A stretch of 64,000 bases of DNA from the IMG/VR virus record IMGVR_UViG_2744054526_000001, positions 16,391 through 80,390 of that record; one strand, given 5' to 3'. Shown here in pieces: positions 46,786 to 64,000 of this stretch. How positions within the stretch are numbered: position 1 is the stretch's first letter; every line of letters starts with the position of its first letter. The notes beneath the pieces are model-generated. The model saw only the letters and a list, made by a program, of their open reading frames with translations, was not told the DNA's origin and searched no databases. The stretch comes from a virus (lineage: Duplodnaviria; Caudoviricetes). A program made the position numbers and the translations under genes.

Positions 46786-47020
46786 TCAAGCGTCCCTTAA
46801 AATGCTTGTTGAAGTCAGGGTTGTTGGTGTCCAGCACGAAGTGGCAACCATCTGGAAAATGCACCTGACCTTAATGCTCTTCGAGTTCCAGCCTTGGGTG
46901 CTGTGCCATGCCCCGATAATCATATCTCCTATGTTGTCTTCATGATTGTAAACACCGTGATGGTAGTAGGCATCTTTGTTGAATAACAAGCAAATGTGGT
47001 AATGGTATTTATCGCTTCCT
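46786..47020 (-). pseudogene. Fragment of a second YagK/inovirus-Gp2-like HUH gene
   Basis: Minus strand reads GSDKYHYHICLLFNKDAY...IIGAW, paralleling HYHLMLLFNADVY...IQKAW of the intact neighbour; no N-terminus. Confidence 0.65.
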
Positions 47021-47025
47021 AGAAA

Positions 47026-47061
47026 CTGCTACAACCTGCTACATGTAGCAGGTTGTAGCAG
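47026..47061. repeat. Perfect 36-bp palindrome
   Basis: CTGCTACAACCTGCTACA|TGTAGCAGGTTGTAGCAG with no spacer. Confidence 0.95.
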
Positions 47062-47152
47062 GGTACCGAGGCAAACTATAAAAATTTCACTGAGAAATGT
47101 GTCAATTATGTTAATTGACAGAATGAGGATAAATACCTCAGCTAGAGAGCTA

Positions 47153-47851: not shown

Positions 47852-48114
47852 AATAATCCTTAAGTATGTAAATAATAATCTTTGGCTAATGGGTAGCCCT
47901 CACGCTACCCATGTGATGTTGGATATAACTCCTGTAGGGGAGTTATTATTACTATTGATAAGTACTGATTAGGTATAGAACCTTAATTAAGGTATATTAC
48001 ATATACCACCTTAAAATCATGAGTTGCCCTCCCTAGTCATTTAAGTTGAGGCCGCAGGATTATTGAGCTTTAGAACAAAAAAATATTATCCAGAAAAACT
48101 TAGCTACTCTGAAG

Positions 48115-49629
48115 TTATTCGTTCTTTGGTAGTTTATTAAAAGCAACAGATCCAGATGAAATTAAAGGTATGTTTGATGCTTTAGCCATATCAAAAGGAT
48201 GCACGTCTGAACCAATATATTTTACATAGTCAACGCCGTCCATTTTAAATAACTGCACTATGCCATCTTTCTCAAGTTCCTTTAAAACGGGTATCAGACG
48301 CTCTATGTTTCTAAGAGAGTATGGACCATCTCTACGAATAGTGTGCCTCCTAAAATCGTAAGATTTATTACTGATAACATGTTCCTCAAGCCAAAATAGC
48401 AACTTTTCTTTCTCGCTAGGTTTTCTGGTAGAATCTACTTTTAAAATTAAGTGGGTAATACACCATTCACTTATTTTAGCTGCTGACAGAAAAGTATCCC
48501 TAGTAATTATTGGTGAGTCGGGTGTAATAAACATTTGCATTACTGCTGCGATTCGCGTAGCTTGTTCCATTATTCTGGAACCAAAATCATCATAGTGATG
48601 CAACTCACCTCCTGATTGCATAAGTTCCCTGATTCGCTTATTTTGTGTTTCCCATAATGCTTTCGCCTCTTCAGATAAAGTAATACAGATACGTTCTTCA
48701 TTGTTTTCTCTACGCTGTATGCCGTCTTGCAAGTGCTTAACAAGAATAGAGAAAAAACCATCAAGCCCTGGTTCATCAGACCATGAACATACATCAGGGA
48801 TATCGCATGGTTCAGGTACTTGCTCCAGATCAATTAATAATAAACGGGCTAAGAACCCTGAGTTTCTTAATTTTTTTCCTTGCTTGCTTAGGAAATCGTT
48901 AAATATTGCAGGTTGCAGTAACAGCAATATGGTCAGCCGGACATCATCAACATCGTAGCTGTCACGAGATGCTCTGCTGTCTGAAATTCTCCCTTCTCCC
49001 CAAAGAGAGTTGAGAACTGATATATCGCGAAAAAGGCTACTGTCAAACACCCCTCCGGCTTCATCAGAACCGAGCATCAAGGACGGAGATCCCAGAGCTA
49101 ATGTCTTTTTAAGTCCCTCGCTTGTTGAATCATTTTTAGTAAGATACTTTCTAACCGGTGCTACCGGTCCACTTTTCTGACATTCCTCCAGTGCTTCGCG
49201 TGTTTCAGCTACATCAACCTTCTGGCGAACAGCTTTGCTAAATTGCTTTTTAAGTTCTTTTAATTCCGTATCCCAAGATACTTTTTTCAGTTCATAAATT
49301 TTTTCCTTTTCCAGAAAGATATTCTTCATTCCCTTTTCCATTTGATGGATTGTTTCCATCAGTGCTTTGAATACCGTTGACTTCCTGCTACCTGACCGTG
49401 CTAATAAAAGGAGATAAAGTGATGTAAATGTTCTCCCATTTTTAAGCTGAACATCAAATTTATCCTGACAGGAAAATGCCATTACCCCAAGTAATACTAT
49501 TAAAATAAGCTCAATGGGAGCTCCTGTTTTGTAATGTATGTAACTTATCAATCGCTGTGCAAAAGTGGGCAGCGTATGAAACTCCAGACAAAGTTCTTTA
49601 TTTTGCTTAGATTTTTTTTCCTTAGACAT
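48115..49629 (-). CDS. YfjI/DUF3987-like P-loop protein
   Basis: ARSGSRKST, SDEAG, SGFLAR motifs; C-terminal wHTH-like region. Confidence 0.85.
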   Translation of the reverse strand: MSKEKKSKQNKELCLEFHTLPTFAQRLISYIHYKTGAPIELILIVLLGVMAFSCQDKFDVQLKNGRTFTSLYLLLLARSGSRKSTVFKALMETIHQMEKGMKNIFLEKEKIYELKKVSWDTELKELKKQFSKAVRQKVDVAETREALEECQKSGPVAPVRKYLTKNDSTSEGLKKTLALGSPSLMLGSDEAGGVFDSSLFRDISVLNSLWGEGRISDSRASRDSYDVDDVRLTILLLLQPAIFNDFLSKQGKKLRNSGFLARLLLIDLEQVPEPCDIPDVCSWSDEPGLDGFFSILVKHLQDGIQRRENNEERICITLSEEAKALWETQNKRIRELMQSGGELHHYDDFGSRIMEQATRIAAVMQMFITPDSPIITRDTFLSAAKISEWCITHLILKVDSTRKPSEKEKLLFWLEEHVISNKSYDFRRHTIRRDGPYSLRNIERLIPVLKELEKDGIVQLFKMDGVDYVKYIGSDVHPFDMAKASNIPLISSGSVAFNKLPKNE

Positions 49630-49780
49630 GCATTGTATAGCTCCTCTTTTTTAGAAAAATTATACTGTTTTTGAAGCAGTCCACTTATCTATAGAAGTGG
49701 ACCGCCATCCTACCAATGAAAAGCCAAGTTGATGGACTAAGAAATATTTCCAGAATCATTTTTAATGATGAATAAATATC

Positions 49781-50020
49781 TCACAAACATTTAACGTTGG
49801 CTGTTTTTAACGTTTTTAGATAATTTTTAACATCATCTTCAAACCAATAATTTCTATTGTTAATTTTGATTGGTCTGACTAGACCGAAGGGAAGGCGATC
49901 TTCATGCAACCACATTCTTATCGTTTGAGGTTTGCGCTTTAGAAAATCAGCTAACTCAGTAGTAGATACCAAGGAAATATTATCTAGATCTAATGAGTGT
50001 AACATTTTAGATTGATTCAT
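49781..50020 (-). CDS. Small HTH protein (excisionase/AlpA-like)
   Basis: STTELADFL..KPQTIR.W...P.KI...YW...DV. Confidence 0.75.
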   Translation of the reverse strand: MNQSKMLHSLDLDNISLVSTTELADFLKRKPQTIRMWLHEDRLPFGLVRPIKINNRNYWFEDDVKNYLKTLKTANVKCL

Positions 50021-50463
50021 GCTGCCACCTCTGTAAAAGAGTTGTTGGCAAATGAATTAAAGAGGAAATTTATATGACAAAAACAAGAAGGGAATATGGA
50101 ACCAAAAGCCTCAGCAGGTTCGGGATCACTTCCATCGCTAGAACTAGAAGACAAAGAATTTTTAACTGATTTGGTGGTGCTGCGACGTGACCTTGCAGCC
50201 GAGCCTGTATGAGGCACACTCCGAAAAATTACATTCTGAAATGCAATGCTAAGTGACTTAATTCTTACGTGTTTCCGTTTCATAGCAAGGTTCATTGCAT
50301 GAAGAGCAACTTTCTTGTAATGATTTTTAAACCATTGAGCGAGTGGTCCTGCATCTGCTGATGGGGCATGGTAATAGATTTCAAAAGCCGCATTATTTAA
50401 TCCCAGCATGTTCGCCAGAATCTCTTGGTCATTGTCTAAAGCGCTGGTCTTTGAATCAAACAT
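50017..50463 (-). CDS. Hypothetical protein (yagN position)
   Basis: 148 aa with SSSSSDGSDPEP low-complexity tail, GGAG RBS. Confidence 0.6.
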   Translation of the reverse strand: MFDSKTSALDNDQEILANMLGLNNAAFEIYYHAPSADAGPLAQWFKNHYKKVALHAMNLAMKRKHVRIKSLSIAFQNVIFRSVPHTGSAARSRRSTTKSVKNSLSSSSSDGSDPEPAEAFGSIFPSCFCHINFLFNSFANNSFTEVAA

Positions 50464-50570
50464 TCTGATACATCTCCTTTATGGTTGAGGTTTATGAGTC
50501 GATTTTCATCTAAGTTTGTATTCCTGTCAATATATCCACACTCCGTTTAACTTATTGATAATATTGAATA

Positions 50571-51896
50571 TCAACGCAACTCAACATTCTTTTTTTTACT
50601 GGTTTTGGTTTGTTCTAAGATCCAAGTCTCAATTTTTTCATGCCATTTGCGCAACAGATCTAAGGGACGACGGCGGTAGTGTTTTTCCGCCAGTGCACTT
50701 GGTTTGTGTCCCATAATTTGAGCAACAATACCTGTTGGCACTTCAACCCATTCTGCCAGGGTTCCAAAACTACGGCGTAAGCCGTGAAGGCTGATATGTG
50801 GCAACTCAGCTCGAGCTAACGCTCTGTTGTGTGCTGAACGCGGTTCAATAATTTTGCCACTTTTGCTGTTACTTCTGAAAACCCAACACTCCTTATTTAC
50901 GTCAGAATTTGGGAATTGCACTAGTGCACTTAACAGCTCAGAAACATAAGGAGTGAGAGGGATGATACGTTCGCCTTCGATCTTGTCTTTAATCCTCATG
51001 CTTGACCATTTGAAATCTACGTCAGACCACCGAAGTGACGCAATTTCTTCACGCCGTGCACCGGTGAGCAAAAGTACCTGGAGATAGGCCGATGCAATGG
51101 GATTATTGAGGCTACGTACGGCACTGAACCAGCTTTTTAACTGTTCTTTTTGTAAGCAATCTCCCGCTTTACTCGCTGATACTGGAACCATTTTTCTCAC
51201 GTTATGATCTTGTGCAAGATCGCCATGGATTATTCCCTGATATTTTTTCTGGTAATTAGCCCATTTGATAAATGCACGCAACAGACGGTAGGCATGAGCA
51301 GTGACGGTAGGCCGATTTTGTCTCTCTGTACTTAGCCATACGGCAATGTTCTCTGGTGTTAGTTCCGATAACGGTAGGTCGAGTAAGCTAGCCAATGGTC
51401 CAGACGAGGTTGGGCCCCGGCCTCTTTTTTTACTTTCGCCTCCACGGCTGGACAAGTTCACGTGATCGGCAATATAACGTGCAGAGTAAGGACGTTTAGT
51501 TTTTGCGCTGATTCCGGTTCTCAATTCTTGAAGATAATCTTCCCAAGCGCTTGAGAAGGTTACCTTCGTTTTACGAGATTCAGCCTGCTGTGATTCCGCT
51601 TCAGCAATTTTTTCTGCTTTAGCTATACGCGGATCTATCCCAGTATCGATTAATGTTTGCAGCCGCCTGGCTTCGGCCCTGGCATCATCAATCCTCCAAT
51701 CGTTAATGTTGCCAATGGTCATGCGAAGGGTTTTTCCCGCATATACGCTTTGGAACACAAAAGCTTTTGTTCCGCGAGTTGCCCGGCATGCCAGAGTTGG
51801 TACATCCGCATCCCAAAGAAATGCTTGGTTTTTACCTTCAGTTAAAGCAAATTTTCGAATGCGCTCGAAGGTGAGTTTTTGTCTCGGAAGTGCCAT
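50571..51896 (-). CDS. Tyrosine integrase (IntF-like)
   Basis: Arm-binding N-terminal domain, TGARREE, HGLRRSF, MGH, HY; ATG 51896. Confidence 0.93.
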   Translation of the reverse strand: MALPRQKLTFERIRKFALTEGKNQAFLWDADVPTLACRATRGTKAFVFQSVYAGKTLRMTIGNINDWRIDDARAEARRLQTLIDTGIDPRIAKAEKIAEAESQQAESRKTKVTFSSAWEDYLQELRTGISAKTKRPYSARYIADHVNLSSRGGESKKRGRGPTSSGPLASLLDLPLSELTPENIAVWLSTERQNRPTVTAHAYRLLRAFIKWANYQKKYQGIIHGDLAQDHNVRKMVPVSASKAGDCLQKEQLKSWFSAVRSLNNPIASAYLQVLLLTGARREEIASLRWSDVDFKWSSMRIKDKIEGERIIPLTPYVSELLSALVQFPNSDVNKECWVFRSNSKSGKIIEPRSAHNRALARAELPHISLHGLRRSFGTLAEWVEVPTGIVAQIMGHKPSALAEKHYRRRPLDLLRKWHEKIETWILEQTKTSKKKNVELR

Positions 51897-51933
51897 TTTT
51901 GGTCTCCAGATGAGAAAGGTTACATCACCATAA

Positions 51934-51976
51934 TGTAACGGCTGGTGTAAGTAAATTGGGGAAATACACATCAACA
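51934..51976 (+). repeat. Integrase arm-type site, right copy
   Basis: TGTAAC-N5-GTGTAAGT-N15-ACATCAACA matching 26010-26052. Confidence 0.7.
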
Positions 51977-52078
51977 CCTGTCAATTTTTATCAACAGGTG
52001 TTTTTTATAAGTTAATGTTTTATAATGAAATAATTGTTTTAAGAGTAGGTTTTTAAAGGGGTAAAAGTATAATAACTT

Positions 52079-52127
52079 CGCATTCGTAATGCGAAGGTCG
52101 TAGGTTCGACTCCTATTATCGGCACCA
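52079..52127 (+). repeat. att core: 3' 49 bp of tRNA-Thr(CGT)
   Basis: CGCATTCGTAATGCGAAGG...ATCGGCACCA; direct repeat of 25907-25952. Confidence 0.95.
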
Positions 52128-52240
52128 TTCAAACATCTTCTAACGTCTACTAAAGTTCACTCAAACCCCTTATACTCTGCATTGTGTCGCTCCTGATAGT
52201 ATTTTTACGTCTACCGACATACCCCAAAATCTACATGCTT

Positions 52241-52262
52241 CTGGGGGTACATTCGGGGGTAT
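52241..52262 (+). repeat. Arm-type repeats of the P4-like integrase
   Basis: Two GGGGGTA direct repeats upstream of int. Confidence 0.6.
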
Positions 52263-52292
52263 GTGCTGTTAGGTCTTGTGGAGATACCCCCA

Positions 52293-53507
52293 ATGAAGCT
52301 CAACGCCCGCCAGGTTGATACCGCTAAACCAAAAGATAAACCCTATAAACTTGCTGATGGTGGTGGGCTTTATCTTCTGGTTAACCCAAATGGTGCACGA
52401 TACTGGCGGCTTAAGTATCGTGTAGCAGGCAAAGAAAAGCTGCTGGCTCTGGGGGTATATCCAGACGTTACCCTCGCAGATGCGCGGGCTAAACGTGATG
52501 AGGCAAAAAGGGGGATCGCCGGGGGCATCGACCCTAGCGAAGCAAAGCGGGAAGAAAAGATATCCCGAGAGTTAAATGTCAGGAATACATTTCAGGAAAT
52601 AGCCTGCGAATGGCATTCCAGCAAGCTCTATAAATGGTCTGAGGGGTACGCCTCGGACATTATGGAAGCATTCAATAAGGATGTTTTTCCGTACATTGGT
52701 AAAAAACCGATCTCGGAAATCAAACCGCTAGAATTGCTTAATGTGCTTCGCCGAATGGAGGGGAGAGGGGCAACGGAGAAGGCTAAGAAGGTTAGGCAGC
52801 GCTGCGGTGAAGTTTTTCGCTATGCCATTGTTACTGGCCGGGCTGAATACAATCCAGCGCCAGATCTCACCAGCGCTATGCAGGGGCATGAATCCAGCCA
52901 CTATCCTTTCCTGAATGCGCCTGAGCTTCCCGCATTTTTTGAGGCGCTATCACGTTACTCAGGTAGTGAGCTGGTGGTATTGGCCGCGCGTTTGCTGATC
53001 ATCACTGGTTTAAGAACAGGTGAACTCCGAGGAGCTACATGGCAGGAAATCGACGTTGATGCTGCTGTTTGGGAGATTCCGGCGGAACGAATGAAGATGC
53101 GCCGCCCACACATAGTGCCATTGTCATTACAGGCGCAAGCCATAATCATGCGTATCCGGGAAATGACAGGCCGCTATCCCTATATATTCCCTGGGCGTAA
53201 TGATCCGCGTAAAACCATGAGTGAAGCCAGCATTAACCAGGTTTTTAAACGCATCGGGTATGCCGGGAGAGTAACAGGCCACGGTTTCCGCCACACCATG
53301 AGTACCATTCTCCACGAACAGGGCTATAACACCGCATGGATTGAAACGCAGCTCGCCCACGTCGATAAAAACTCTATTCGAGGCACATACAACCACGCTC
53401 AATATCTCGATGGCCGCCGGGAAATGCTTCAATGGTATGCCGACTATATGGATGCGCTGGAACACCATGAAAACGTGGTTCATGGGCGTTTTGGTAAATC
53501 CTCATGA
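52293..53507 (+). CDS. P4-like tyrosine integrase
   Basis: KLADGGGLYLLV, TGLRTGELR, HGFRH, QLAH, YNHA.YL..R. Confidence 0.95.
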   Translation: MKLNARQVDTAKPKDKPYKLADGGGLYLLVNPNGARYWRLKYRVAGKEKLLALGVYPDVTLADARAKRDEAKRGIAGGIDPSEAKREEKISRELNVRNTFQEIACEWHSSKLYKWSEGYASDIMEAFNKDVFPYIGKKPISEIKPLELLNVLRRMEGRGATEKAKKVRQRCGEVFRYAIVTGRAEYNPAPDLTSAMQGHESSHYPFLNAPELPAFFEALSRYSGSELVVLAARLLIITGLRTGELRGATWQEIDVDAAVWEIPAERMKMRRPHIVPLSLQAQAIIMRIREMTGRYPYIFPGRNDPRKTMSEASINQVFKRIGYAGRVTGHGFRHTMSTILHEQGYNTAWIETQLAHVDKNSIRGTYNHAQYLDGRREMLQWYADYMDALEHHENVVHGRFGKSS

Positions 53508-53566
53508 CTGGATGAATAGACAGTGATAGCTGATGCGGGTAGACTTCAGTAGACGAACAAAGAATA

Positions 53567-53622
53567 GGCTATGTCTAGGCTGATCCCCGAAAACCCGTAC
53601 ACCTCTGCGGGCTGACATAGCC
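53567..53622 (+). ncRNA. Candidate structured RNA between int and the next gene (int-alpA-like motif)
   Basis: GGCTATGTC/GACATAGCC outer stem, inner CCCGTA/TGCGGG hairpin, GCTGATCCCCGAAAA internal loop. Confidence 0.45.
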
Positions 53623-53651
53623 CCCAAAATCAGAGGGCGCGAGGTGGCGTT

Positions 53652-53972
53652 ATGTTAGATATCGCTGAAGTGCTCAAAGCACGAGAAAATGAGTTTATCA
53701 GTTTAAGAGAATTGATTACTCGTATCAGACTACAGCAACCACATGTCAGTGAATCCGATATCGCAAGTTTTCTTTACATTGAAAATAGTGATAGAGCGCT
53801 CCCTGAGTGGGTGAAGCAAGGTATTGCAAGCACGATTGAAGGAACCGATGGTGGATACCAGGATTCAGAATTGGTAACTCTCCTGAAAGTTATTCATGAG
53901 GAAGGGCATATGCCTGAGGTGACTCCGCCATCTGAGCCTCCTATGGACTTCGATGATGATATTCCATTCTAG
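53652..53972 (+). CDS. Hypothetical protein with SSB-like C-terminal tail
   Basis: 106 aa, GAGG RBS, ends SEPPMDFDDDIPF. Confidence 0.8.
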   Translation: MLDIAEVLKARENEFISLRELITRIRLQQPHVSESDIASFLYIENSDRALPEWVKQGIASTIEGTDGGYQDSELVTLLKVIHEEGHMPEVTPPSEPPMDFDDDIPF

Positions 53973-53989
53973 ATCTGGAGGTTAATGTT

Positions 53990-54448
53990 ATGGCGGGATG
54001 GGGACAGCCGGTGAAAGACCATTGGTCAGCACCAGCATTTGATACTTATGGCTTTAGGCGCTCCGAGTTGAAGCAGTTAGCGGATAAGCTTGGAATTGAC
54101 CTTTCAACTCCTCTTGAGGAGGTTAAGCCCACACCACTGAATGGTGTTGAGCAAAAACCACTTAGTGAAGCTGATGTTGAGATCCTGAAAATGGAAATTG
54201 ACACACTTAAAAAGCAGGTTAGAAAGCTCGAAAATGAACGCCCTATTTTAATTAACAGGTATCGGGAAGATGACCCTCTATACCTTGCGATTAAAATTCG
54301 GAACCAAGAATGGGCAAAGTACGATCCTGAGAATGATAGGCAAACAAGAGGCAACCAAACAGCGATTGTGAAAGACCTGGAGGATAAGGGTTTTTCGAAT
54401 GTCCAGGCCAAAGCAATCGAAATGGTCGCCTGCCCAATTAAACGTTAA
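53990..54448 (+). CDS. Hypothetical protein, possible repressor
   Basis: 152 aa, GGAGG RBS, central coiled coil, C-terminal HTH-like helices; directly upstream of the operator array. Confidence 0.7.
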   Translation: MAGWGQPVKDHWSAPAFDTYGFRRSELKQLADKLGIDLSTPLEEVKPTPLNGVEQKPLSEADVEILKMEIDTLKKQVRKLENERPILINRYREDDPLYLAIKIRNQEWAKYDPENDRQTRGNQTAIVKDLEDKGFSNVQAKAIEMVACPIKR

Positions 54449-54457
54449 GCAATTAAC

Positions 54458-54629
54458 ACCCTCAGGGATTATGCTGCATGATGCTTACCCTCAGGGTGAA
54501 AATGAAATTTTATCCGTACCCTCATGGCAGCACCTGGCTTACCCTGAGGGTACGATTACAAATAGATTCGCCGATTACCCTTAGCCCTTAGGGTTTATAA
54601 CTAAGAAAAATCCCTCATGCCTGAGGGTA
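54458..54629. promoter_or_regulatory. Array of CCCTNAGGG-type palindromic operators upstream of alpA
   Basis: Copies at 54458, 54487, 54518 (degenerate), 54541, 54577-54594 and 54612-54627. Confidence 0.75.
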
Positions 54630-54696
54630 TGATTTTTTTAGCTTTTTTCATGCCATCATTAATCTCGTAAACCGCAATGGACGTTACGAGGTAAAT

Positions 54697-54894
54697 ATGT
54701 CTCAGTCATTAATTAGATTTGCCGAGGTACAAAAGCGTACTGGCTATAGTAAGGCGTGGTTATACCGTCTTATGAGCGAGAAACGCTTTCCCGCAGCAAT
54801 TAAAATTGGTTCCCGCTCTATCGCTTTTATTGAAAGTGAAATTGACGAGTGGATTAATCAGCGCATCGCTGAGTCGCGTGGCGAGGTGGCGTAA
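54697..54894 (+). CDS. alpA: AlpA-family regulator
   Basis: LIRF.EV..RTG.S..WLY......FP..IKIG.RS..F.ESEI.EWI. Confidence 0.93.
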   Translation: MSQSLIRFAEVQKRTGYSKAWLYRLMSEKRFPAAIKIGSRSIAFIESEIDEWINQRIAESRGEVA

Positions 54895-55328
54895 TGGAAA
54901 AGAAAAACCGCCCCGTACAGCAGGCGGCTAACTCAGATATTCGCACGTCTGATATTACGCCGACCACCAGCCCGGTACAAGTACCTAAGCGTACCCCAAA
55001 GAAACACCGCGCCCGCGTCTATATGCTGCGCACTGGCGTAGAGGGATGGACAGAAAATGATATTCTGCGCTACTGCCGTCTTTCATCCGGGCGTAATTAT
55101 GCGTCTGAACTGGAGCGCCAGCTTGATATTCAACTAGAGCGTATCGACGAGAAAAACCCGGATGGTATCGGCGCACACCTGCGCTACCGCTTTTCCTGCC
55201 GTGGCGACGTTCTCAAGGTGATCCAACTTGTGAACCATAACGCCACCATTAATGAACATCACGGGTTATCTCAGCAGGATATTGCCGACATTCTGAACCT
55301 CTACCCGGACGCATTTAACGCCGCATAA
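54894..55328 (+). CDS. Hypothetical winged-helix-like protein
   Basis: 144 aa coupled to alpA; SSGRNYASELER. Confidence 0.7.
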   Translation: MEKKNRPVQQAANSDIRTSDITPTTSPVQVPKRTPKKHRARVYMLRTGVEGWTENDILRYCRLSSGRNYASELERQLDIQLERIDEKNPDGIGAHLRYRFSCRGDVLKVIQLVNHNATINEHHGLSQQDIADILNLYPDAFNAA

Positions 55329-55341
55329 CGGAGCCGAAAAC

Positions 55342-56184
55342 ATGACTATCGAAAAAAGCCGATTCAATTCGGAGGCCGCCCCACAATCCAATGCTTGCCA
55401 GGGCGAACATAGCAATAATGACTTTGCCGCGATTGTTCCCGTTATTTCCGGTCAAATTGGCGGGCGTGAGGCCAGTATTGTTAGCGCTAAGGCACTGCAT
55501 AAAGCGCTCGGAGTAGGTAACGACTTTTCAACCTGGATCAAACTACGCATTGATGAATATGGCTTTAGCCTGAGTGCTGATTACGTAGTTTTTGATTCCT
55601 CAGATTTCAGGAATCAAAGTTCAAATTTTGAACAGGGTAGCCCCGGATGGGTGACAAAGCGTGGCGGCGACCGTCGCAGTAAAGATTATGGCCTTTCTCT
55701 GGGAATGGCTAAAGAACTGGCAATGGTTGAGCGAAACGAACAAGGTCGCGCCGTTCGCCGTTACTTTATTCAGTGTGAAGAAGCCCTACAGCGCAGCGTG
55801 CCAGAGATTGCCGCTCAGTATCGCCGCCAGCTCAAAGCCCGTATCGGTGCCGCCAGCCTGTTTAAACCGATGTGCGTAGCACTGGAAAGCGCCCGCGCAG
55901 AACAGGGTAAACAGACGCAGGCTCGCCACTACAGCAACGAGAGTAATATGATCGCCCGCATTGTTTTGGGTGGCATGACGGCGAAGCAGTGGGCGCAGGC
56001 GAATAGCATTACTGGCGAACCACGCGACAGCATGAACGCCGGGCAACTGGAACACCTCACCTACCTGGAGAGTACCAACATTACGCTGATTGATATGGGT
56101 ATGGGATATGACCAGCGTAAAGCCGAGCTAATCCGCCTTTCTCAGCGCTGGTTAGCTAAACATCTGGGGGCTAATCATGCTTAA
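55342..56184 (+). CDS. AntA/AntB-family antirepressor
   Basis: VSA..LH..L....DFSTWIK.RI..YGF, MAKELAMVER...GR..RRYFI.CE. Confidence 0.9.
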   Translation: MTIEKSRFNSEAAPQSNACQGEHSNNDFAAIVPVISGQIGGREASIVSAKALHKALGVGNDFSTWIKLRIDEYGFSLSADYVVFDSSDFRNQSSNFEQGSPGWVTKRGGDRRSKDYGLSLGMAKELAMVERNEQGRAVRRYFIQCEEALQRSVPEIAAQYRRQLKARIGAASLFKPMCVALESARAEQGKQTQARHYSNESNMIARIVLGGMTAKQWAQANSITGEPRDSMNAGQLEHLTYLESTNITLIDMGMGYDQRKAELIRLSQRWLAKHLGANHA

Positions 56185-57001
56185 TGCCGCCGTCCAGAAT
56201 AAAGTCTTTCCCCTGGCTGGCCTGATGTGTACCTTGCGCGGGATCGCGCACACGCACGAGGGTAAAGCTGGCATAACAGTGCCAGCTAATGCCAGCTCCT
56301 CATTTTCTCGTCGTGGTGACGAGGAGAGTTTCGAGACCAGTACGCGCACGGGACTTTTTGCACCAGTACGCGCACGCGAGGAAGGTTTTTCTGACATCAC
56401 TACGCCAGGGGGAAATCATTCTACTGGCGTGAGTTTTCGGAGAAGTACGCGCGTGCGCGAAGGTGAGTTTCTGGAGTCCATAAAAAAGGGCTTGCCGACT
56501 ATCGCCAACCCGGTTTATGGTTATAGCGCACCAGCAGAATCTGGTGCCGGGATTGGTCTCCCGGTAAATCGAATGGCGACACACGACGCGCCTAGCGTCT
56601 TTTTTTGTGCCGTTAGCTCAGTACACCTCTTTTTCAGCGGTACGGGTATTATCCGTGTCGCTCGCAAAATTATGGTGGGCTGCGTGGGGGCTTCTTCGGA
56701 AGCGCCGGTGACCATTCGAGCCGGTAAGACCAACTCTGCGCAGTCCACCACCAGCAAGATTGGTCTCTTCGGTGGTGGGTTAATCCCAAATCGAATGGAG
56801 GCTGCCGCTATGCTGGCTACTACCCCTACCCAAAATCCGCAATTCATCTGGTTAATCGCAGCCGTTCGCCGCGACATGCCGACAATTACCGCCAAAATCC
56901 ATCATATCGCTGCTGAATCTGAGCGCGAAGCCCGCCGCACGCTGTCGCGGGATCACGTCTGTTTCTTTGCAGGCCGTATCCGTCAGGAGGTGGCAGCATG
57001 A
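56177..57001 (+). CDS. Ash-family ORF with C-terminal Icd-like host division inhibitor (internal ATG 56810)
   Basis: MLATTPTQNP...AESEREARR.L......FAGRI; spans the C4-like RNA. Confidence 0.8.
   Translation: MLNAAVQNKVFPLAGLMCTLRGIAHTHEGKAGITVPANASSSFSRRGDEESFETSTRTGLFAPVRAREEGFSDITTPGGNHSTGVSFRRSTRVREGEFLESIKKGLPTIANPVYGYSAPAESGAGIGLPVNRMATHDAPSVFFCAVSSVHLFFSGTGIIRVARKIMVGCVGASSEAPVTIRAGKTNSAQSTTSKIGLFGGGLIPNRMEAAAMLATTPTQNPQFIWLIAAVRRDMPTITAKIHHIAAESEREARRTLSRDHVCFFAGRIRQEVAA
56673..56750 (+). ncRNA. C4/CI-like antisense immunity RNA
   Basis: TGGTGGGCTGCG/CGCAGTCCACCA closing stem, CTTCGG hairpin, CCGG hairpin, AGACCAA bulge complementary to TTGGTCT upstream (56553) and downstream (56760). 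Confidence 0.8.
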
Positions 57002-57261
57002 ACATTAACGCCTTATACCGCCATCCGTCCGAGCTTGAAGCCGAAGCGATGTTATCCCGCGAGCAGGCTTACCCGGATGATTTTACGCTGGCAGACCGAA
57101 CAGCAGAACGTATGACCCGCGCCCGTAATGGGCTGGCTCACGTTATGACCGATTTAGCCACTCAACTAAACGATGAACAGGCCGCTATCGTGTATTGCTG
57201 GTTGAGTAAAGTCCTGACGATTGTCGATATAGCCAGAATTGATGCGGAGGGCAGCGCATGA
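56998..57261 (+). CDS. Hypothetical satellite protein
   Basis: 87 aa, ATGA overlap with the ash/icd ORF. Confidence 0.7.
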   Translation: MNINALYRHPSELEAEAMLSREQAYPDDFTLADRTAERMTRARNGLAHVMTDLATQLNDEQAAIVYCWLSKVLTIVDIARIDAEGSA

Positions 57262-57884
57262 GCAACGCACCGACCATTAAATCGGGAAATGCCGACTTAT
57301 TACACGCCGAAGCCACACCGCACGGCGTCAATATCATGACCCGCAATGATGCCGGGGGATATGAGCAGGTTGCTCTTATCAGCTACGAGAGCGCCGTGAA
57401 CGGCCTTGACGCCGGAGAGTACGACGACAAGCCAGATATCGGATACGCCATTCATTTTGCCGTTGCTGATGGCGGGGCGCGTGGCTGGTTCGACTTCACC
57501 GCGCAGCATAACGTCACCATGTGGCGATGGCTGGTTGCTGCGACGTTCATTTCTGAGATGAAGCGCGAAAACGGCACAACAACCATCACGGAGGATGACG
57601 GCAAATCGTCGCTGGTGACGTTTTATTCAAATGGCACGGAGGGGATTGTGGTTTACCCGTTCGCGGAACGTCTGGCGATGGCTAACAATATGGAGGGCGC
57701 AATGATTGAGCGCTACGGCATTGAGCAGGGAACAGCGAACGCCATTGTTTTTTATCAGGCCATGATCGACACGGAGCGCGGCGAGTTGACCCCGTTCGGG
57801 CGTCAGACGCTGGCAGAGCTACACGATGGATTCATTGCCGATCTGAATGAAAACGGCTTGCCTGAAATGCCAGCGGCGCACTGA
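57258..57884 (+). CDS. Hypothetical satellite protein
   Basis: 208 aa, ATGA overlap, precedes the primase. Confidence 0.7.
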   Translation: MSNAPTIKSGNADLLHAEATPHGVNIMTRNDAGGYEQVALISYESAVNGLDAGEYDDKPDIGYAIHFAVADGGARGWFDFTAQHNVTMWRWLVAATFISEMKRENGTTTITEDDGKSSLVTFYSNGTEGIVVYPFAERLAMANNMEGAMIERYGIEQGTANAIVFYQAMIDTERGELTPFGRQTLAELHDGFIADLNENGLPEMPAAH

Positions 57885-57898
57885 GGGAGGTAACACGA

Positions 57899-60664
57899 AT
57901 GCGTAATATCGACCTTATCCGCGAAGTGACCAGCGCCGCAGCAGGGCGCTGGCCTTATGTACTGGCTGGCCTGTCTATCGACGTGCCTGATTCATCGCGC
58001 CGCCATTCCCCATGCCCTGCATGTGGTGGAAAAGACCGTTTCAGATTCGACGACAACGGGCGCGGTAGCTTTATCTGCAACCAATGCGGCGCTGGCGACG
58101 GGCTGGACTTAATCAAACGGGTGAACAACTGCGACACCACAGAGGCGGCGCACCTTGCCGCCGATGTGCTGGGTATTGATTACCGGGCCGCAGAATCAGC
58201 ACCAGACGCTGCCAGCCAGAGACAGACGCAGTTAGCCGCAGACCGCCAGCAGCGTGAGCAGGAGCGCCAGAAACAGGCAGCAGAGGACGCAGAGCAGCGA
58301 AGGGCTACGTTTGCCCGTCTGTATACCGGAATGCGCCTGAGATCCATACAGGGAGAATCTGAGTACCTGCAATCAAAAGGGCTGACCGGGTTTAAATACC
58401 CGCTTATGCCCGATGGTTCGTTATTGCTGGAGCTGGTGGACGAGTCCGGCGCAGTGGCAGCAGCGCAGACCATTACACCGCATGGAGAAAAGCGACTCCT
58501 GACAGGTTCAGCAAAGCGCGGGGCATATCACGCCGTAAACGCGCCAGAATCGCCGCAGAGCGTTTTAATTGCCGAAGGGCTGGCGACGGCCCTTTCAGTT
58601 CACCTGATGCGCCCGGACGCGCTGGCAGTGGCAGCAATTGACGCGGGCAACCTGCTACCCGTTGCCGAAGTGATGCGCCGTAAACACCCGAAGGCGCAAA
58701 TTATTATCGCCGCAGACAACGACCACCACCAAAACGGAGAAGCCAATACAGGCAGGGAGGCCGCAGAGAAAGCCGCCTTATCCGTGGCTGGCTGGGTATC
58801 AATGCCACCGACAGACTACAAAGCCGACTGGAACGACCACCACCAGAAAAACGGGCTGGAAGTCGCTACGGCTGCGTTTAACGATTCGATGTACCAGATT
58901 CAAGGGGAAGCCGTGAAACCACGATTGCAGGCCATTGAGGGCGGTAAAACTGACCATCCAGAGAAAGACCCACTAAAACCCCACATTGAGAGCCGCAAAG
59001 ATGGCGTTTTCTGGGTAACGCCGAAGGTGGACAAGGAAAGCGGGGAGATCATCAACGCTGAAAGCTGGTTATGTTCACCGTTGGAGGTTATCGGCACGGG
59101 ACGCGACGACAAAGATCAGTATCTTATTATCTCATGGCTGGCATTCGGTGCAGGCATACCGACAACAGCGGCTATCCCGCTGGCTGATATTGGCGAGCGT
59201 GAAGGCTGGCGCACCCTGAAAGCTGGTGGCGTCAACGTCACAACGAAAAACAGCTTACGGGCGATTCTTGCCGACTGGTTACAGCGAAGCGGCTCGCGTG
59301 AATTGTGGCGCGTTGCTCATGCTACAGGCTGGCAGTGCGGGGCATACATCATGCCGGACGGGGAAATTATCGGCACACCTGGGCGCCCTGTTTTGTTCAG
59401 CGGGCGCAGTTCAGCCGCTGCCGGGTATACCGTAGCAGGAACGCCGGAAAGCTGGCGTAACAGTGTTGCGCGGCTGGCATACGGTAATTACGCGATGATG
59501 ACAGGCATCGCCGCAGCACTGGCAGCGCCATTAATCGGGGTGGCAGATCGTGACGGATTCGGGATTCATTTTTATGAGCAATCGAGCGCCGGGAAAACAA
59601 CCACGCAGAACGTGGCGAGCAGTCTTTACGGCAACCCTGATGCCTTGCGCCTGACGTGGTACGGGACGGCGCTGGGGCTGATAAACGAGGCCGCCGCCCA
59701 CAATGACGGGCTGATGCCACTGGATGAAGTCGGACAGGGCGCAGACCCGATAAGCGTTTCACAGTCTGCCTATGCTCTTTTTAACGGCGTGGGGAAATTG
59801 CAGGGAGCAAAGGAAGGCGGCAACCGGGATCTAAAGCGCTGGCGTACCGTGGCAATCAGTACCGGGGAAATGGATTTAGAAACGTTTATCGCCACCGCAG
59901 GACGCAAGACAAAAGCGGGGCAACTGGTGCGCTTGCTGAATATCCCGTTAAGTAAGGCGGTGCGCTTTCATGAACACCAGACAGGGAAAGAACACGCCGA
60001 CGCGCTGAAAGATGCTTATCAGCACCATCATGGCGCTGCCGGGAGGGAGTGGATCAGATGGCTTTCAGACCACCAGCAACAGGCGATTGATGCCGTTCGT
60101 GAGTGTGAGGCCCGCTGGCGCAGTCTAATCCCTGCCGACTATGGGGAACAGGTTCACCGTGTAGGGGCAAGATTTGCCATTCTGGAGGCCGCTTTACTGA
60201 TGGGTGGCGTGGTTACTGGCTGGGATGCTCAAACGTGTCGGGATGCGATACAGCAAAGCTACAACGCATGGCTGAAAGAGTTCGGCACGGGGAACAAAGA
60301 GCACCAGCAGATCATCGAGCAGACGGAGGCGTTTTTAAATGCCTATGGGCTGAGTCGATTCGCGCCGCTGCCTTACGACCCCGCCAGCCTGCCGATTCAT
60401 AATCTGGCTGGATACAGGCAGCGCGGAAATCATGACGATTCACCGATAACGTTTTACACGTTCCCCGACACTTTCGATAAGGATATTGCTAAGGGGTTTA
60501 ACAGGCAGCAGGTGGCCCGCGTCCTGAAAGAATCGGGGATGCTTACCCCTTCGGCAGACGGAAAAAAATTTCAGAGGAAAAGCCCGCGCATTCAGGGGAG
60601 GCAGATTAACGTTTACGTTTTGCAATTCCTGCCGGATGGGGAGGAAAGCCAGCCAGAGCAATAA
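57899..60664 (+). CDS. Primase-helicase (Zn ribbon, TOPRIM, DUF927-like helicase)
   Basis: CPACGGKDRF...CNQCGAGDG, AEGLATA, AADND, DWND, SSAGKTT, LDEVGQ. Confidence 0.92.
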   Translation: MRNIDLIREVTSAAAGRWPYVLAGLSIDVPDSSRRHSPCPACGGKDRFRFDDNGRGSFICNQCGAGDGLDLIKRVNNCDTTEAAHLAADVLGIDYRAAESAPDAASQRQTQLAADRQQREQERQKQAAEDAEQRRATFARLYTGMRLRSIQGESEYLQSKGLTGFKYPLMPDGSLLLELVDESGAVAAAQTITPHGEKRLLTGSAKRGAYHAVNAPESPQSVLIAEGLATALSVHLMRPDALAVAAIDAGNLLPVAEVMRRKHPKAQIIIAADNDHHQNGEANTGREAAEKAALSVAGWVSMPPTDYKADWNDHHQKNGLEVATAAFNDSMYQIQGEAVKPRLQAIEGGKTDHPEKDPLKPHIESRKDGVFWVTPKVDKESGEIINAESWLCSPLEVIGTGRDDKDQYLIISWLAFGAGIPTTAAIPLADIGEREGWRTLKAGGVNVTTKNSLRAILADWLQRSGSRELWRVAHATGWQCGAYIMPDGEIIGTPGRPVLFSGRSSAAAGYTVAGTPESWRNSVARLAYGNYAMMTGIAAALAAPLIGVADRDGFGIHFYEQSSAGKTTTQNVASSLYGNPDALRLTWYGTALGLINEAAAHNDGLMPLDEVGQGADPISVSQSAYALFNGVGKLQGAKEGGNRDLKRWRTVAISTGEMDLETFIATAGRKTKAGQLVRLLNIPLSKAVRFHEHQTGKEHADALKDAYQHHHGAAGREWIRWLSDHQQQAIDAVRECEARWRSLIPADYGEQVHRVGARFAILEAALLMGGVVTGWDAQTCRDAIQQSYNAWLKEFGTGNKEHQQIIEQTEAFLNAYGLSRFAPLPYDPASLPIHNLAGYRQRGNHDDSPITFYTFPDTFDKDIAKGFNRQQVARVLKESGMLTPSADGKKFQRKSPRIQGRQINVYVLQFLPDGEESQPEQ

Positions 60665-60691
60665 TCTTTTTCACGTGCGAGGTTTTTTGTG

Positions 60692-60947
60692 GTAGTTCAG
60701 GTGGTTCAGGTGGTTCAGTAAGTAATTATTATTGATTTATAATGTTTTTTTGTAAGAAAGTGAACCACCACTGAACCACCAAACGGGTATTTTGAACCAC
60801 CAGAGAGAAACGGATTATTTTCACTGGCTGGAAGTGAACCACCAAGCAGGGCGACTGAACCACCAGATAAATTAAAAAGGTGGTTCAGCAAAACCCAGAG
60901 CTGGCGCGACCTAGAGGGATACTGAACCACTGAACCACCTGAACCAC
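60692..60947. repeat. Putative replication origin with TGAACCAC iterons
   Basis: 8 forward copies (60761, 60772, 60793, 60835, 60856, 60923, 60931, 60940), 3 reverse (60701, 60710, 60880), 1 degenerate; AT-rich gap 60721-60760. Confidence 0.85.
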
Positions 60948-61052
60948 CAACTTTTTTGTTTATATACAAAAAAATCTGGCGAAGGTGTCCCACAATAAGA
61001 CGGAGCCGGGTAATCTTCATTAGCAAAACTAATAATTCGAGGTATTCGCAAA

Positions 61053-61514
61053 ATGACAGCACAGATATCAGCCTACGGGCGTTTAGTCGCAGACCCGCAG
61101 ACCCGCACCACAGCAAACGGTACAAGCATGGCGATGGGACGGTTGGCGGTGGCACTGCCCTGCCATGCAGCAGAGGGCGGAGAGGTTACTTTCTGGCTGG
61201 GCGTGGTGGCATTCGGCAAACAGGCCGACGCACTGGCAGGACACGTTAAAGGCGATTTAGTCAGTGTTGCCGGAGCGATGCAGGTCAATCAGTGGGCGGG
61301 CAAGGATGGCGGTACACAGCAAGGCTATCAGGTAGTAGCCGACAGCGTGATCAGCGCCAGAACGGTACGCCCCGGCGGGAAGCGGGCCGAATCAGTCAAA
61401 GCAAGCGGAGCCAGCAGAGGCCACGCAACACAATCCGCGCCGGGATGGGAGTTATATAACACCCCTGATGATTTTGACCAGCGCCCGCCGTTTGATGATG
61501 AAGATCCATTCTGA
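61053..61514 (+). CDS. ssb: Single-stranded DNA-binding protein
   Basis: GRLVADP, VVAFG..A, KGD.V.V.G OB fold; acidic FDDEDPF tail. Confidence 0.9.
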   Translation: MTAQISAYGRLVADPQTRTTANGTSMAMGRLAVALPCHAAEGGEVTFWLGVVAFGKQADALAGHVKGDLVSVAGAMQVNQWAGKDGGTQQGYQVVADSVISARTVRPGGKRAESVKASGASRGHATQSAPGWELYNTPDDFDQRPPFDDEDPF

Positions 61515-61525
61515 GGGATATAAGC

Positions 61526-61837
61526 ATGGTAAACGACAGCAAAGCCGGGGCTTTGGAGGCAAAGGGGCTGTATCGCAGGGCAGCTACACGCTGGCAGGAA
61601 GTCATGATGCTTTGTGCTAAGGACGATGATCGGGAATGGGTAAAGCAGCGCCGTGATATGTGTCTGACGAACGTGAAGCGCCCGCCAGTGAAAACCGATG
61701 ATTACGGCGATCTGCATAAAGCAGTCACTGAGACACAACACCGCATGGGGATAGCGCAACCGAACGGTAACGCCTTCCGGTTAAATGGCGGTAAGAAGCA
61801 ACGACAGACCACCAGCGGGAGCGACAGTTCGCAGTAA
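61526..61837 (+). CDS. PerC-family transcriptional activator
   Basis: A..LE.KGLYRRAA.RW.EV. Confidence 0.88.
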   Translation: MVNDSKAGALEAKGLYRRAATRWQEVMMLCAKDDDREWVKQRRDMCLTNVKRPPVKTDDYGDLHKAVTETQHRMGIAQPNGNAFRLNGGKKQRQTTSGSDSSQ

Positions 61838-62458
61838 GGTTCGCACCAGAACGGCTGTAAATTCTGGACTGTTCTTGACAGATTTTAAACCCTAGTAGCG
61901 CTAAACCCGCGCCAGTCGTGGGCTGGAAGCCAGAACGTGATTTAGGTTGTCAAAAATATTCTGGTTCGCGCCATTGGTTCGCAGTACGCAGTCAGGTACG
62001 CAGCAAAACTGCGCATTCAGCGTGCGTACCATCTGACGAATTCTAACGGCGGCATTGCGAATGCGTCGTAAATTGCGCAGGGAGTGGTTGAGAAACTTTA
62101 TTTCCTGCCAGTGTTCACAGGTGCGTAAAATTGCGTGATACGAAACCGATTCGCAGTTGCGTACCAGCCTGTAAGCCGCATTATCGCTGGGTTTCTACAG
62201 TCGAAAGCAGTACGCAAAGTGAAAAATCCTCCAAATACGAAACCCGAATATTGCGCAGTAAATTGCGAATTGCGCAGTTCACAAAAAATCTGCGCAAAAC
62301 GAAACGGATACCAATGCGCAAACCATCCTGAAACCCGCTCCATTACTGGATTTATAGATATACAGTGCGCAAAATAGTGCACAATTCGCAGTCAAATACG
62401 CATATTATTTCGTATTCATTTTTGCGCACCGTTCGTAGTTAATGCGCAGTAATTCGCA
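61828..62458. repeat. Non-coding array of about 28 TDCGHA hexamers
   Basis: TGCGCA/TTCGCA/TACGCA/TGCGAA/TGCGTA/TACGAA/TTCGTA counted by eye. Confidence 0.85.
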
Positions 62459-62470
62459 GGAGGCCAGCCA

Positions 62471-63082
62471 GTGAGAGACAGAACGCGCAGCTATACCACC
62501 GACCTGCCCCGTATAGGCTTGCCATTCCTTGCGAACATGCGTAGCAGGCTGGCGGACGCTGAACAGGGTACGCAGCTTTATACCCAGACCGAAAGCGGAA
62601 CGTTGTATACCTTCCGGCAAGCCGACAGCTACGCCATGACAATCAACGGCGTGACGCGGGCGATTCGCACCACAACCACACAGGCCGGGTATGGCGTGCG
62701 GGAATGGTACGTTTGCCCCCATTGCGTGAAACGGGTAGCGAAGCTGTATATCGGCAAGAAAGACATTGGCTGCCGGGCGTGCTGGAAACTTCACTATAAA
62801 AGCCAGAGCGCCGACAAACTGGACAGGATGCGCATGAAGATACGCCAACAGCGATACGCGATATGGGGCAACAATGACCTTACCAACAACCTGTTTAATG
62901 ATATTCGCATGTTCCCAAAACCAAAGGGGATGCGCTGGGCTACGTTTGACAGGAAGCGGGCAGAGTTGTCAGCAATGGAGGTGGCTTACTGGCAGGCATT
63001 CAGTCCGGTAGTAGATAGAATCACGGGCGTGATTGAGCGTAAGGCGGGGAAAGCGGCGCGAGCTATAGGGCTGGAGTTGTAG
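62471..63082 (+). CDS. Basic Zn-finger hypothetical protein
   Basis: AGGAGG RBS, GTG start; WYVCPHC..R..KLY....CRAC..L.Y.SQ and PKPKGM motifs. Confidence 0.8.
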   Translation: MRDRTRSYTTDLPRIGLPFLANMRSRLADAEQGTQLYTQTESGTLYTFRQADSYAMTINGVTRAIRTTTTQAGYGVREWYVCPHCVKRVAKLYIGKKDIGCRACWKLHYKSQSADKLDRMRMKIRQQRYAIWGNNDLTNNLFNDIRMFPKPKGMRWATFDRKRAELSAMEVAYWQAFSPVVDRITGVIERKAGKAARAIGLEL

Positions 63083-63151
63083 CGATATTCTGGTTTTCTG
63101 ACATAATTATGTAAAATCAGCCAGTTACCCACCATAGCAGGAGCTGCCATA

Positions 63152-63337
63152 GTGACACCACAGGAGATAGCAGCACTGACAGCCGCTAAACTGGAGCATG
63201 AAGGCCGCCAGCTTACCCCGGCAGAGGTTCGGGAAATGGAGCGCATTATTGAAGCTGATACAGCCCGGCGCAAACGGTTCGGGGAGATGATGCGATCACC
63301 CGCCTACCAGTGGAGGAAGCCAGCGCCGCGCAGGTAG
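63152..63337 (+). CDS. Small hypothetical protein
   Basis: 61 aa, AGGAG RBS, GTG start. Confidence 0.55.
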   Translation: MTPQEIAALTAAKLEHEGRQLTPAEVREMERIIEADTARRKRFGEMMRSPAYQWRKPAPRR

Positions 63338-63457
63338 ATACGGGATTATTCCGCATGTAACTTATGCGTATTAAGCAAATTTCCTTTATTCACCTTTACA
63401 GAATTGTGAGTGCGTCAGTATCGTTATCCTTCCGATTCGCATTTATTCAGGATTTGC

Positions 63458-64000
63458 ATGTACCAGCTAAAGATAACCATCCGAGACAGCAAACCACCTA
63501 TATGGCGGCGTGTGCTGGTTCCAGAGCAAATCCCCTTTAGTGAACTTCACGCGGTGATCCAGTTGGCTTTTGGCTGGAATGACGAACATCTGTATATGTT
63601 CGAGAAAGGGCGTAAAGGTGATCCCGGTAGCGAGTATCGCGTATGGGGTGAGGATGAAAGCATGGGTAATGCGGCAATCACACCACTATGGGCAGCGCTC
63701 CAGAATGATGGTGACAAGCTGGTTTACACGTATGACTTTGGCGACTGGTGGGATTGCGTCATTGTGCTGGAGAAGCAAACACACGATACGAGTAATCAGC
63801 CCATTAGCTGCCTGCGTGGGAAAGGCACCACCCCGGCGGAAAACTCAGGCGGCTTGCATGGTTACAATGAATTGCTATTACAGGCCAGAGAGTCTGATAA
63901 TCCTGAGCAGGCCGAGATCCACAATTTCCTGATGCTGGATATTGAACGCCGGGTTTACGACCTGAGCCGCATCAACGACAGATTGCAGGCTATTAACTGA
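63458..64000 (+). CDS. pRiA4b ORF-3-family protein
   Basis: YQLKI.....PPIWRR..VP, LH..IQ.AFGW...HLY.F, Y.YDFGD.W, P.E..GG..GY. Confidence 0.9.
   Translation: MYQLKITIRDSKPPIWRRVLVPEQIPFSELHAVIQLAFGWNDEHLYMFEKGRKGDPGSEYRVWGEDESMGNAAITPLWAALQNDGDKLVYTYDFGDWWDCVIVLEKQTHDTSNQPISCLRGKGTTPAENSGGLHGYNELLLQARESDNPEQAEIHNFLMLDIERRVYDLSRINDRLQAIN

Follow-up and report, generated by a model that had tools for sequence, protein, structure and literature searches.

What does a dense array of short, near-palindromic DNA words do in a phage satellite, at a point where packaging functions might have been expected? We addressed this question for a 64,000-nt stretch of a tailed-phage record (Duplodnaviria; Caudoviricetes; IMG/VR record IMGVR_UViG_2744054526_000001, positions 16,391 to 80,390), hereafter the window, in which hexamers of the form TDCGHA crowd positions 61828..62458 of the + strand, between a PerC-family gene (perC) and the gene of a 203-aa zinc-ribbon protein that we call p203. 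By gene content, the surrounding 12 kb are a satellite of the Gram-negative phage-inducible chromosomal island (PICI) type. A first description made from the letters alone (the sequence-only reading) had proposed a protein-wrapping cis site, such as a signal for packaging, a site akin to a centromere, or a decoy that titrates a protein. We favor, with moderate confidence, a reading within the first and last of these: the array may be a multiplied mimic of the packaging (pac) site that the small terminase subunit (TerS) of a helper phage recognizes, carried by an island without packaging genes of its own.

A dense hexamer array between perC and p203

The sequence-only reading had put the number of TDCGHA matches at about 28. 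We counted 28 between 61828 and 62458, each where it had been placed, including the last seven (62385, 62397, 62409, 62423, 62432, 62443 and 62453). The array also runs into the ribosome-binding site (RBS) of the next gene, as had been claimed: its final TTCGCA (62453) abuts a GGAGG at 62459-62463, ahead of a GTG start at 62471. The two motifs said to punctuate the array are present as well (AAACCCGCNCCA at 61903 and 62331). In 2000 dinucleotide-preserving shuffles of the stretch 61821-62475, which holds 28 matches, the mean count was 2.93 (standard deviation 1.62, maximum 10). The window itself is not enriched for TDCGHA (136 matches versus 156.9 ± 12.4 expected, an average of 1.3 per 630 bp), and we found no second TDCGHA cluster across the entire 80-kb record.

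Hidden in the degenerate palindrome is an oriented word, T[T/A/G]CGCA, which covers 24 of the 28 matches: 10 are TWCGCA on the + strand, 9 are the palindromic TGCGCA, and 5 lie on the - strand. The remaining four are TACGAA (twice) and TTCGTA (twice), three of them belonging to an 8-mer, TTTCGTAT, that occurs in both orientations within the array (62138-62146 and 62235-62243 on the - strand, 62408-62415 on the + strand; the copy at 62138 reads ATACGAAAC on the + strand). The first hexamer (61828) lies within the final codons of perC, whose stop codon is at 61835-61837, and the rest of the array is non-coding. As the sequence-only reading held, it contains no credible open reading frame (ORF): the longest frames (66-94 aa) are disrupted in relatives by 1-nt indels, and it is because relatives differ in this way that we consider the stretch non-coding. 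The hexamer columns themselves are invariant in an alignment of seven relatives, despite these indels.

The same word clusters in phage terS genes

Scanning 401 Enterobacteriaceae genomes for three close words, we obtained matches in 39 genomes, versus 11 for a reversed control. The scan returned 30 loci (here and below, loci from any search bear the prefix L), seven of which hold at least six words in distinct contexts. In two, L061 and L062, the words lie within a coding gene, that of a Terminase_2 small terminase (E 1.1e-22), which is followed by a Terminase_6N large terminase (TerL). Homologues of this TerS occur in temperate Klebsiella, Escherichia and Yersinia phages, and its N-terminal domain is also found in the TerS of Shiga toxin-converting phages. 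An unbiased scan of IMG/VR for the triple word returned 80 loci, 44 of them in this TerS family and 2 beside p203; the 34 elsewhere are mostly three-word chance matches in GC-rich contigs, or coding tandem repeats.

Four phages fetched by protein homology alone all carry the cluster, at terS nt ~100-260 (6, 3, 5 and 5 words), directly after the N-terminal helix-turn-helix (M.KPDWGELQQRF..GISPKDWCEAQGLNYATARRYIKK), and the terS gene of Aeromonas phage phiARM81mr holds 7 words. The complete genome of Klebsiella phage 5 LV-2017 (47 kb) has its sole cluster in terS (6 words in 120 bp; per-window Poisson P ~4e-8); outside terS, no cluster exceeds two words. Across the family, the words fall into two groups, at nt 100-200 and 350-400, and their density is 33.6 per kb in the terS linker versus 1.4 outside (40 genes, 36 of which were found by the pattern itself). 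They occupy all three reading frames (170/35/25). Moreover, Ala-Gln/Asn/Glu pairs are spelt as the hexamer in 14 of 19 cases in the linker versus 4 of 23 in the remainder of the gene (the four homology-ascertained phages). Because all three frames are used and codon choice in the linker is biased, the words are held as DNA and not as protein code, and the word of the island array is identical to this DNA-level signal.

The word also follows the protein. The TerS of phage 933W has a 53%-identical domain, yet its gene carries, in place of TGCGCA-type words, (C/T)GATCAT four times at 12-bp steps; in BcepMigl TerS the domain is absent, and there is no word in the gene. Judged from these sequences, the word covaries with the helix-turn-helix. 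We infer that the terS cluster is the pac site of its phages. The GATCAT words of 933W (L193, 1640-1690) stand right after the helix-turn-helix, where they encode IDHEIDHKTDHEIDH, and represent a GATC-bearing, P1-like variant.

Island arrays and terS clusters share more than the hexamer: both favor A at -2 (67% and 71%) and R at +1, and both show spacings of 7 and ~12 bp. At this level of motif, flank and spacing, the packaging-signal and decoy part of the proposed protein-wrapping site gains support. The centromere part does not: a scan of island proteins revealed no ParA/ParM-type gene.

Conservation in three satellite lineages

We observed the array in relatives of the island and in two further satellite lineages. 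In E. coli relatives it stands at the same place, whether the replicase is of the DUF5906, P4-family primase or DUF927 type. In a megablast search, parts of it were present in 43 of 5426 complete E. coli genomes, with none covering 80%. The 14 loci of this lineage have between 1 and 22 contiguous core words, and by orientation their words are 80 palindromic, 77 + and 25 -. In the arrays of relatives, hexamers are arranged directly (7-bp step), inverted, or about one helical turn apart.

The array of the window can be divided into recurring parts. Its head is a conserved leader module (~61860-61975, + strand) that begins with the direct-repeat pair CTGGAC-N4-CTTGAC (61864..61879) and contains the first AAACCCGCGCCA motif (61903..61914); the form common to relatives is a repeat pair AAACCCGCGCCAG..GGCTGGAAGCC, then AAAATATTCTGG, and it recurs in L001-L004, L006-L008, L011 and L014. 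Next comes a distal hexamer cluster (61978..62028, +; TTCGCA, TACGCA, TACGCA, TGCGCA, TGCGTA), which includes a 36-bp near-palindrome, GGTACGCA...TGCGCA...TGCGTACC, and is kept in L001, L002, L004, L006-L008, L011 and L014. A ACGAAACGGAT block (62299..62309, +) is largely invariant in the seven aligned relatives, and is followed by the second AAACCCGCTCCA motif with its adjoining TTACTGGATTT (62331..62342, +). The best conserved part in E. coli relatives is the proximal phased cluster (62366..62458, +), which comprises eight matches, the last seven 9-14 bp apart, and ends at the RBS. Near the next gene, relatives also keep a -10-like CATATTATTTCGTATTCATTT block (62401..62421, + in the window), which is retained even where hexamers are lost: in L006 and L008 the middle and proximal words are gone, while the leader and the -10-like block remain.

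The leader module is duplicated in L002 and L004, where its copies flank a 125-aa ORF inserted in the array (L002 6215-6592, L004 5482-5859). The ORF has a glycine-rich motif, GAPLGNTNAVKHG, that is weakly TerS-like (E 6.6e-4 in NCBIfam, 2.6e-3 in PHROGs). This ORF looks like a cassette that brings or duplicates its own leader. The two halves of the leader repeat covary, reading CTGGAC/CTTGAC in most loci and TTAGTAC twice in L004 (5103-5122), a pattern that a paired binding site of variable specificity would be expected to show.

A second lineage is represented by L040/L064 and L051/L065, with 16 and 9 words. Its gene order is that of a PICI (primase, AlpA-like protein, ejection/DNA-transfer protein of phrog_770, a 264-aa zinc-finger protein, array, p203 homologue), and TTTCGTATT is retained in this lineage at 37% p203 identity. 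In the third, L190, the order is integrase, AlpA-like protein, primase, scaffold, major head protein, array, a small gene and a tail-assembly gene. In all three lineages the array lies at the distal, 'late' end. A perfect triplication in L040 (1600-1700) repeats a 32-bp unit with three hexamers, which shows that such arrays grow by tandem duplication. A different array, AAGTGTCAAC repeated five times, occurs in L013 (5190-5420; also L016 and L017) after a TerS-like gene of its own (phrog_57, E 1.2e-8); it still has ACGAAACC and CCG..TTACTGGATTT (CCGYY..TTACTGGATTT) in common with the array of the window. The pattern matches in L036, L043, L060, L086, L104 and L038 were set aside as coding tandem repeats or chance.

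Packaging or gene control

How could such an array lead to packaging? The helper would belong to a headful-packaging temperate family that carries 5-10 T(G)CGCA hexamers after the region coding for the N-terminal helix-turn-helix of TerS. Each helix-turn-helix in the ring of helper TerS would read one hexamer, at about one per helical turn, and the DNA would wrap round the ring. TerL would then be brought in and cut nearby, and heads would be filled from island concatemers. With at least 20 sites, the island may out-compete the phage's own site and drain TerS from the helper. We infer both the binding of TerS to the island array and the cutting that ensues. A bolder version, which we regard as possible but doubtful, makes the array a packaging signal and a protein-free interference weapon in one. 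Its 3-5-fold excess over the pac words of the phage would soak up TerS and starve phage packaging. Minimal PICIs without terminase, capsid or Rpp-type genes would spread in this manner, with the word swapped to fit the helper (in the L013 type, AAGTGTCAAC in place of the TDCGCA of this island).

Several observations weigh against a pac mimic. In every case the array reaches up to the start of the next gene, with the -10-like block inside it, an arrangement that fits an operator equally, and most words are gone from L006 and L008, where the gene is nonetheless kept. Oriented words in the islands lean to one strand (77 + versus 25 -), whereas terS clusters are nearly all palindromic (211 of 230). 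A published study found that the isolated TerS domain of SF6/SPP1 had little preference for pac repeats (PMC4737164, in part), so repeats at a pac site need not be what is read out. No such cluster occurs in the neighboring prophage. Finally, a TerS query found no terS in the island or the entire 80-kb record, and none of the TGCGCA type in eight array-bearing genomes or chromosomes (the sequences covered were G001, G003, G703, G515, G213, W01, W02, W03 and G000, with L004 and L018 outside the query; the positive control, G480, matched twice). This last result is weak evidence, because terS clusters occur in only 3 of the 401 genomes of the pattern scan (G480, G762 and G505).

An operator array is the main alternative, to which several of these points lead, and we consider it unlikely, if deserving of serious attention. 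A regulator from the island, the helper or the host would cover a promoter at ~62390-62430 together with the 5' leader of the p203 operon, and the upstream words would serve cooperative binding or form a roadblock to read-through from perC. In every lineage the array ends on the RBS or start codon of the next gene, and the -10-like block is conserved even where words are lost. RNA-library contigs from two studies start at 62394 and 62430, and in one run the depth is 20.8 downstream versus 3.4 upstream, a weak hint, as these runs exist as contigs only, in which strand is not readable, DNA carry-over is possible, and coverage gaps or depth differences are not evidence. Upstream of the L064 array, a gene has a weakly Q-antiterminator-like C-terminus (phrog_127, E 1.7e-5). 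On the other hand, scans for a sigma-70 consensus promoter and for a terminator found nothing within the array, and no candidate regulator tracks it, PerC being absent from L001-L003, L011 and L012. AlpA is published as autoregulating (PMC11773190, in part), but there is no hexamer cluster upstream of alpA. At least 20 sites over 600 bp far exceed the needs of an operator, and the sole cluster in phage terS would be left unexplained. The two roles could coexist, since the SPP1 pac site also overlaps promoters (PMC4737164, in part).

The contigs bear on another possibility, which we judge very improbable, that the array acts as RNA: a long untranslated transcript whose UNCGCA(G) repeats would sequester an RNA-binding protein in the manner of a sponge. 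The oriented words do favor one strand (77 + versus 25 -), RNA-library contigs lie over parts of the array (the X15 contig spans 62015-63054), and the + strand folds better than its shuffles (z -3.0). However, the - strand does so too (z -2.0), as expected because the words are palindromic, and folding is not discriminating. Nearly half of the words are palindromic and a quarter of the oriented ones are reversed, the contigs are strandless with possible DNA carry-over, and the link to terS is at the level of DNA. An Rfam search of 60600-63500 at a permissive E-value returned chance-level matches only, none near the gathering score.

A satellite without packaging genes

The island begins, at its left end, with the 3' part of a tRNA-Thr gene bearing the core TCCTATTATC, which equals the attachment (att) core published for the E. 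coli island EcCIMP1 (PMC11773190, in part). It continues with an integrase (52263-53507), AlpA, an AntA-type antirepressor, an Ash-family protein, a phrog_1515 protein and a primase-helicase (Zn_Ribbon_Prim, Toprim_3 and DUF927 domains; 57899..60664, +), then SSB (a protein that binds single-stranded DNA), PerC (61526..61837, +; its last codons contain the first hexamer), the intergenic array, p203 (62471..63082, +), a 61-aa protein and a PRiA4_ORF3 protein. Genes for a terminase, a capsid or an Rpp-like protein are absent from the island. A Pfam scan of 16 island proteins turned up no ParA, ParM or ParB family. A lambda-type cosN 12-mer gave 5 matches with at most two mismatches versus 4.6 expected, none of them in the array, and blastn of the array against 50,697 phage records returned no match.

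Dense repeats in a PICI intergenic region also recall an origin of replication. We found an origin-like region at 60690..60950 (no strand assigned), directly 3' of the DUF927 primase-helicase gene, where some twelve iterons (GGTGGTTCA/TGAACCACC), pointing either way, surround an AT-rich core. This matches the published layout of PICI origins, which lie immediately 3' of pri-rep (PMC6092414, in part). The array starts 1.16 kb beyond that region, after ssb and perC, and is built from a different word. Because this separate GGTGGTTCA set has the layout of a PICI origin, we conclude that the array is not the replication origin, and the same array accompanies DUF5906, P4-family and DUF927 replicases; unlike PICI origins, it does not follow the replicase type.

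Phage P4 has two iteron regions, and the array might be a second replication element of this kind, a crr-like enhancer or an alternative origin bound by the island replicase. Its iteron-like repeats, its AT-rich patches and its distance of at most 1.2 kb from the replication module are what one would look for. We nevertheless hold this to be the faintest of possibilities, given that the primase gene is followed directly, on its 3' side, by a complete origin built on another iteron, and that the array is unchanged in islands with three unrelated replicases.

The array and its zinc-ribbon neighbor

The gene abutted by the array raises the possibility that p203 is itself the reader. No Pfam, PHROG, NCBIfam or PADLOC family was found for p203, and tblastn against the 50,697 phage records gave no match. 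Its family is large and unnamed (2740 cluster representatives at E<=1e-3), and its neighbors in the atlas search are unnamed too. Four cysteines (C82, C85, C101 and C104) are conserved. A single-sequence fold was poor (pLDDT 35), whereas an AlphaFold2 model based on a multiple sequence alignment reached pLDDT 94.9 and combines a beta sheet with a zinc ribbon and a long helix at the C-terminus. Foldseek found 0 matches to this model in the PDB at E<=0.001, and a p203 profile found nothing below E 0.28 among PDB sequences.

In one such scheme, p203 would bind the hexamers or the TTTCGTAT/ACGAAAC words, and the complex would serve autoregulation, episome maintenance or as an adaptor to the helper terminase. 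We think this improbable. Arrays do stand directly upstream of p203 homologues in L040, L051 and L053 (37%, 37% and 51% identity), so that the pairing persists at 37% protein identity in another PICI lineage. In L013 and L016, a fused p203 domain follows the TerS-like gene and the different repeat array. The conserved four-cysteine zinc ribbon and long C-terminal helix would suit a binding role, and a related island exists as a 19-kb circular record. Yet L190 carries an array without p203, and in L004 the array is kept although the p203 gene is internally deleted. Eight distant homologues (25-75% identity) have 0-3 words in the 900 bp upstream, and a homologue on a Psychrobacter plasmid has no array. 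Neither fold nor sequence matched any DNA-binding family, and the island encodes no partition NTPase. As far as these sequences go, array and p203 have long been paired, though not obligatorily.

Homologues of p203 also occur on small Psychrobacter and Paracoccus plasmids. L013, L016 and L017 encode a 321-aa protein in which an N-terminal extension of 100 aa precedes the p203 domain.

Comparison with known packaging systems

The array and the terS clusters can be compared with known pac sites. In phage P1, cleavage at pac is annotated at nt ~276-285 of pacA, next to an IHF site. Four TGATCA-type hexamers precede the cleavage point and three follow it, downstream of the part coding for the PacA N-terminus. 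TGCGCA-type terS genes are alike in having hexamers in two groups inside the gene for the small packaging subunit, after the N-terminal DNA-binding region. A single pairwise comparison aligned the N-terminus of PacA with this TerS domain in register, if weakly (24% over 38 aa, E 0.019). The cleavage site between the groups is annotated in P1, whereas for the terS clusters the layout is known from sequence alone. The words differ as well: T[T/A/G]CGCA has no GATC, which the P1 and 933W words do have, and Dam control of the array is therefore not possible. The island array, moreover, lies outside any terminase gene and spreads 24-28 words over 630 bp, versus 7 over ~160 bp in P1.

The TerS proteins of SPP1 and SF6 belong to the same Pfam family, Terminase_2, as the TGCGCA-type TerS. 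In their ring, the helix-turn-helix motifs are about one DNA turn apart, which permits a wrapping model (PMC4737164, in part). The TGCGCA-type TerS differs in its extra N-terminal helix-turn-helix, with which the word covaries.

Satellites are known to mimic the pac or cos (cohesive-end) sites of their helpers (PMC11417361 and PMC6092414, in part). The satellite PLE mimics the pac site of phage ICP1 with 14 bp (PMC11417361, in part), and some Staphylococcus aureus pathogenicity islands (SaPIs) and the E. coli island EcCICFT073 carry a phage cos (PMC6092414, in part), EcCICFT073 having a cosN without repeated R sequences and requiring the Rpp protein (PMC9026076, in part). In each case, a satellite that lacks a complete packaging module bears the recognition sequence of its helper, and the present island may do the same, to go by its motif-level match. 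The sites of PLE, the SaPIs and EcCICFT073 are single and short, whereas the island word is amplified ~3-5-fold over the phage's own cluster. While mimicry of helper sites by satellites is known, what appears to be new is packaging-site mimicry in the form of a large repeat array with no terminase gene. Our literature search, which left supplementary tables and figures outside, found nothing that joins TGCGCA with a pac site or describes the array.

EcCIMP1 provides a comparison with an island of known helper. It shares the tRNA-Thr att core, the backbone of int, AlpA, AntA, Ash and DUF927-primase, and the 61-aa/PRiA4_ORF3 end module; it differs in having neither array nor p203 (at most 3 words per 300 bp), with ejection-protein genes instead. 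Its proven helper, Kapi1, has a TerS of another kind and no cluster. The island thus has no array and its helper no cluster, a negative that is consistent with pac mimicry. The packaging route of EcCIMP1-type PICIs, which have no terminase or capsid genes, is stated to be unknown (PMC11773190, in part).

Many enterobacterial PICIs have no recognizable packaging module. If the array is indeed an amplified, DNA-only pac mimic, it would explain how such islands are packaged. It would also provide a readable recognition code, of word and helix-turn-helix, for a widespread terminase family, and it would make the helper range of a satellite predictable from its sequence.

Other features of the islands

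A second integrase gene (468 aa, - strand, 50571-52130) ends beside the tRNA-Thr 3' fragment that starts the island, which suggests two tandem elements at one tRNA site. ARAGORN found no whole tRNA in 45000-64000.

The 19-kb circular record mentioned above, L018 (CP031370.2), is deposited as a Klebsiella 'plasmid' and is an island of this kind by gene content: alongside an integrase and PRiA4_ORF3, it encodes PerC, an antirepressor, the 61-aa protein and a p203 homologue (48% identity). Its array has shrunk to ~8 words. Islands of this type are thus also recorded as episomes. The end of the island, after the p203 and 61-aa genes, is a cargo hotspot, occupied by PRiA4_ORF3 in the window, by an Abi_2 protein in L013 and L015-L017, and by other large ORFs in L011 and L012.

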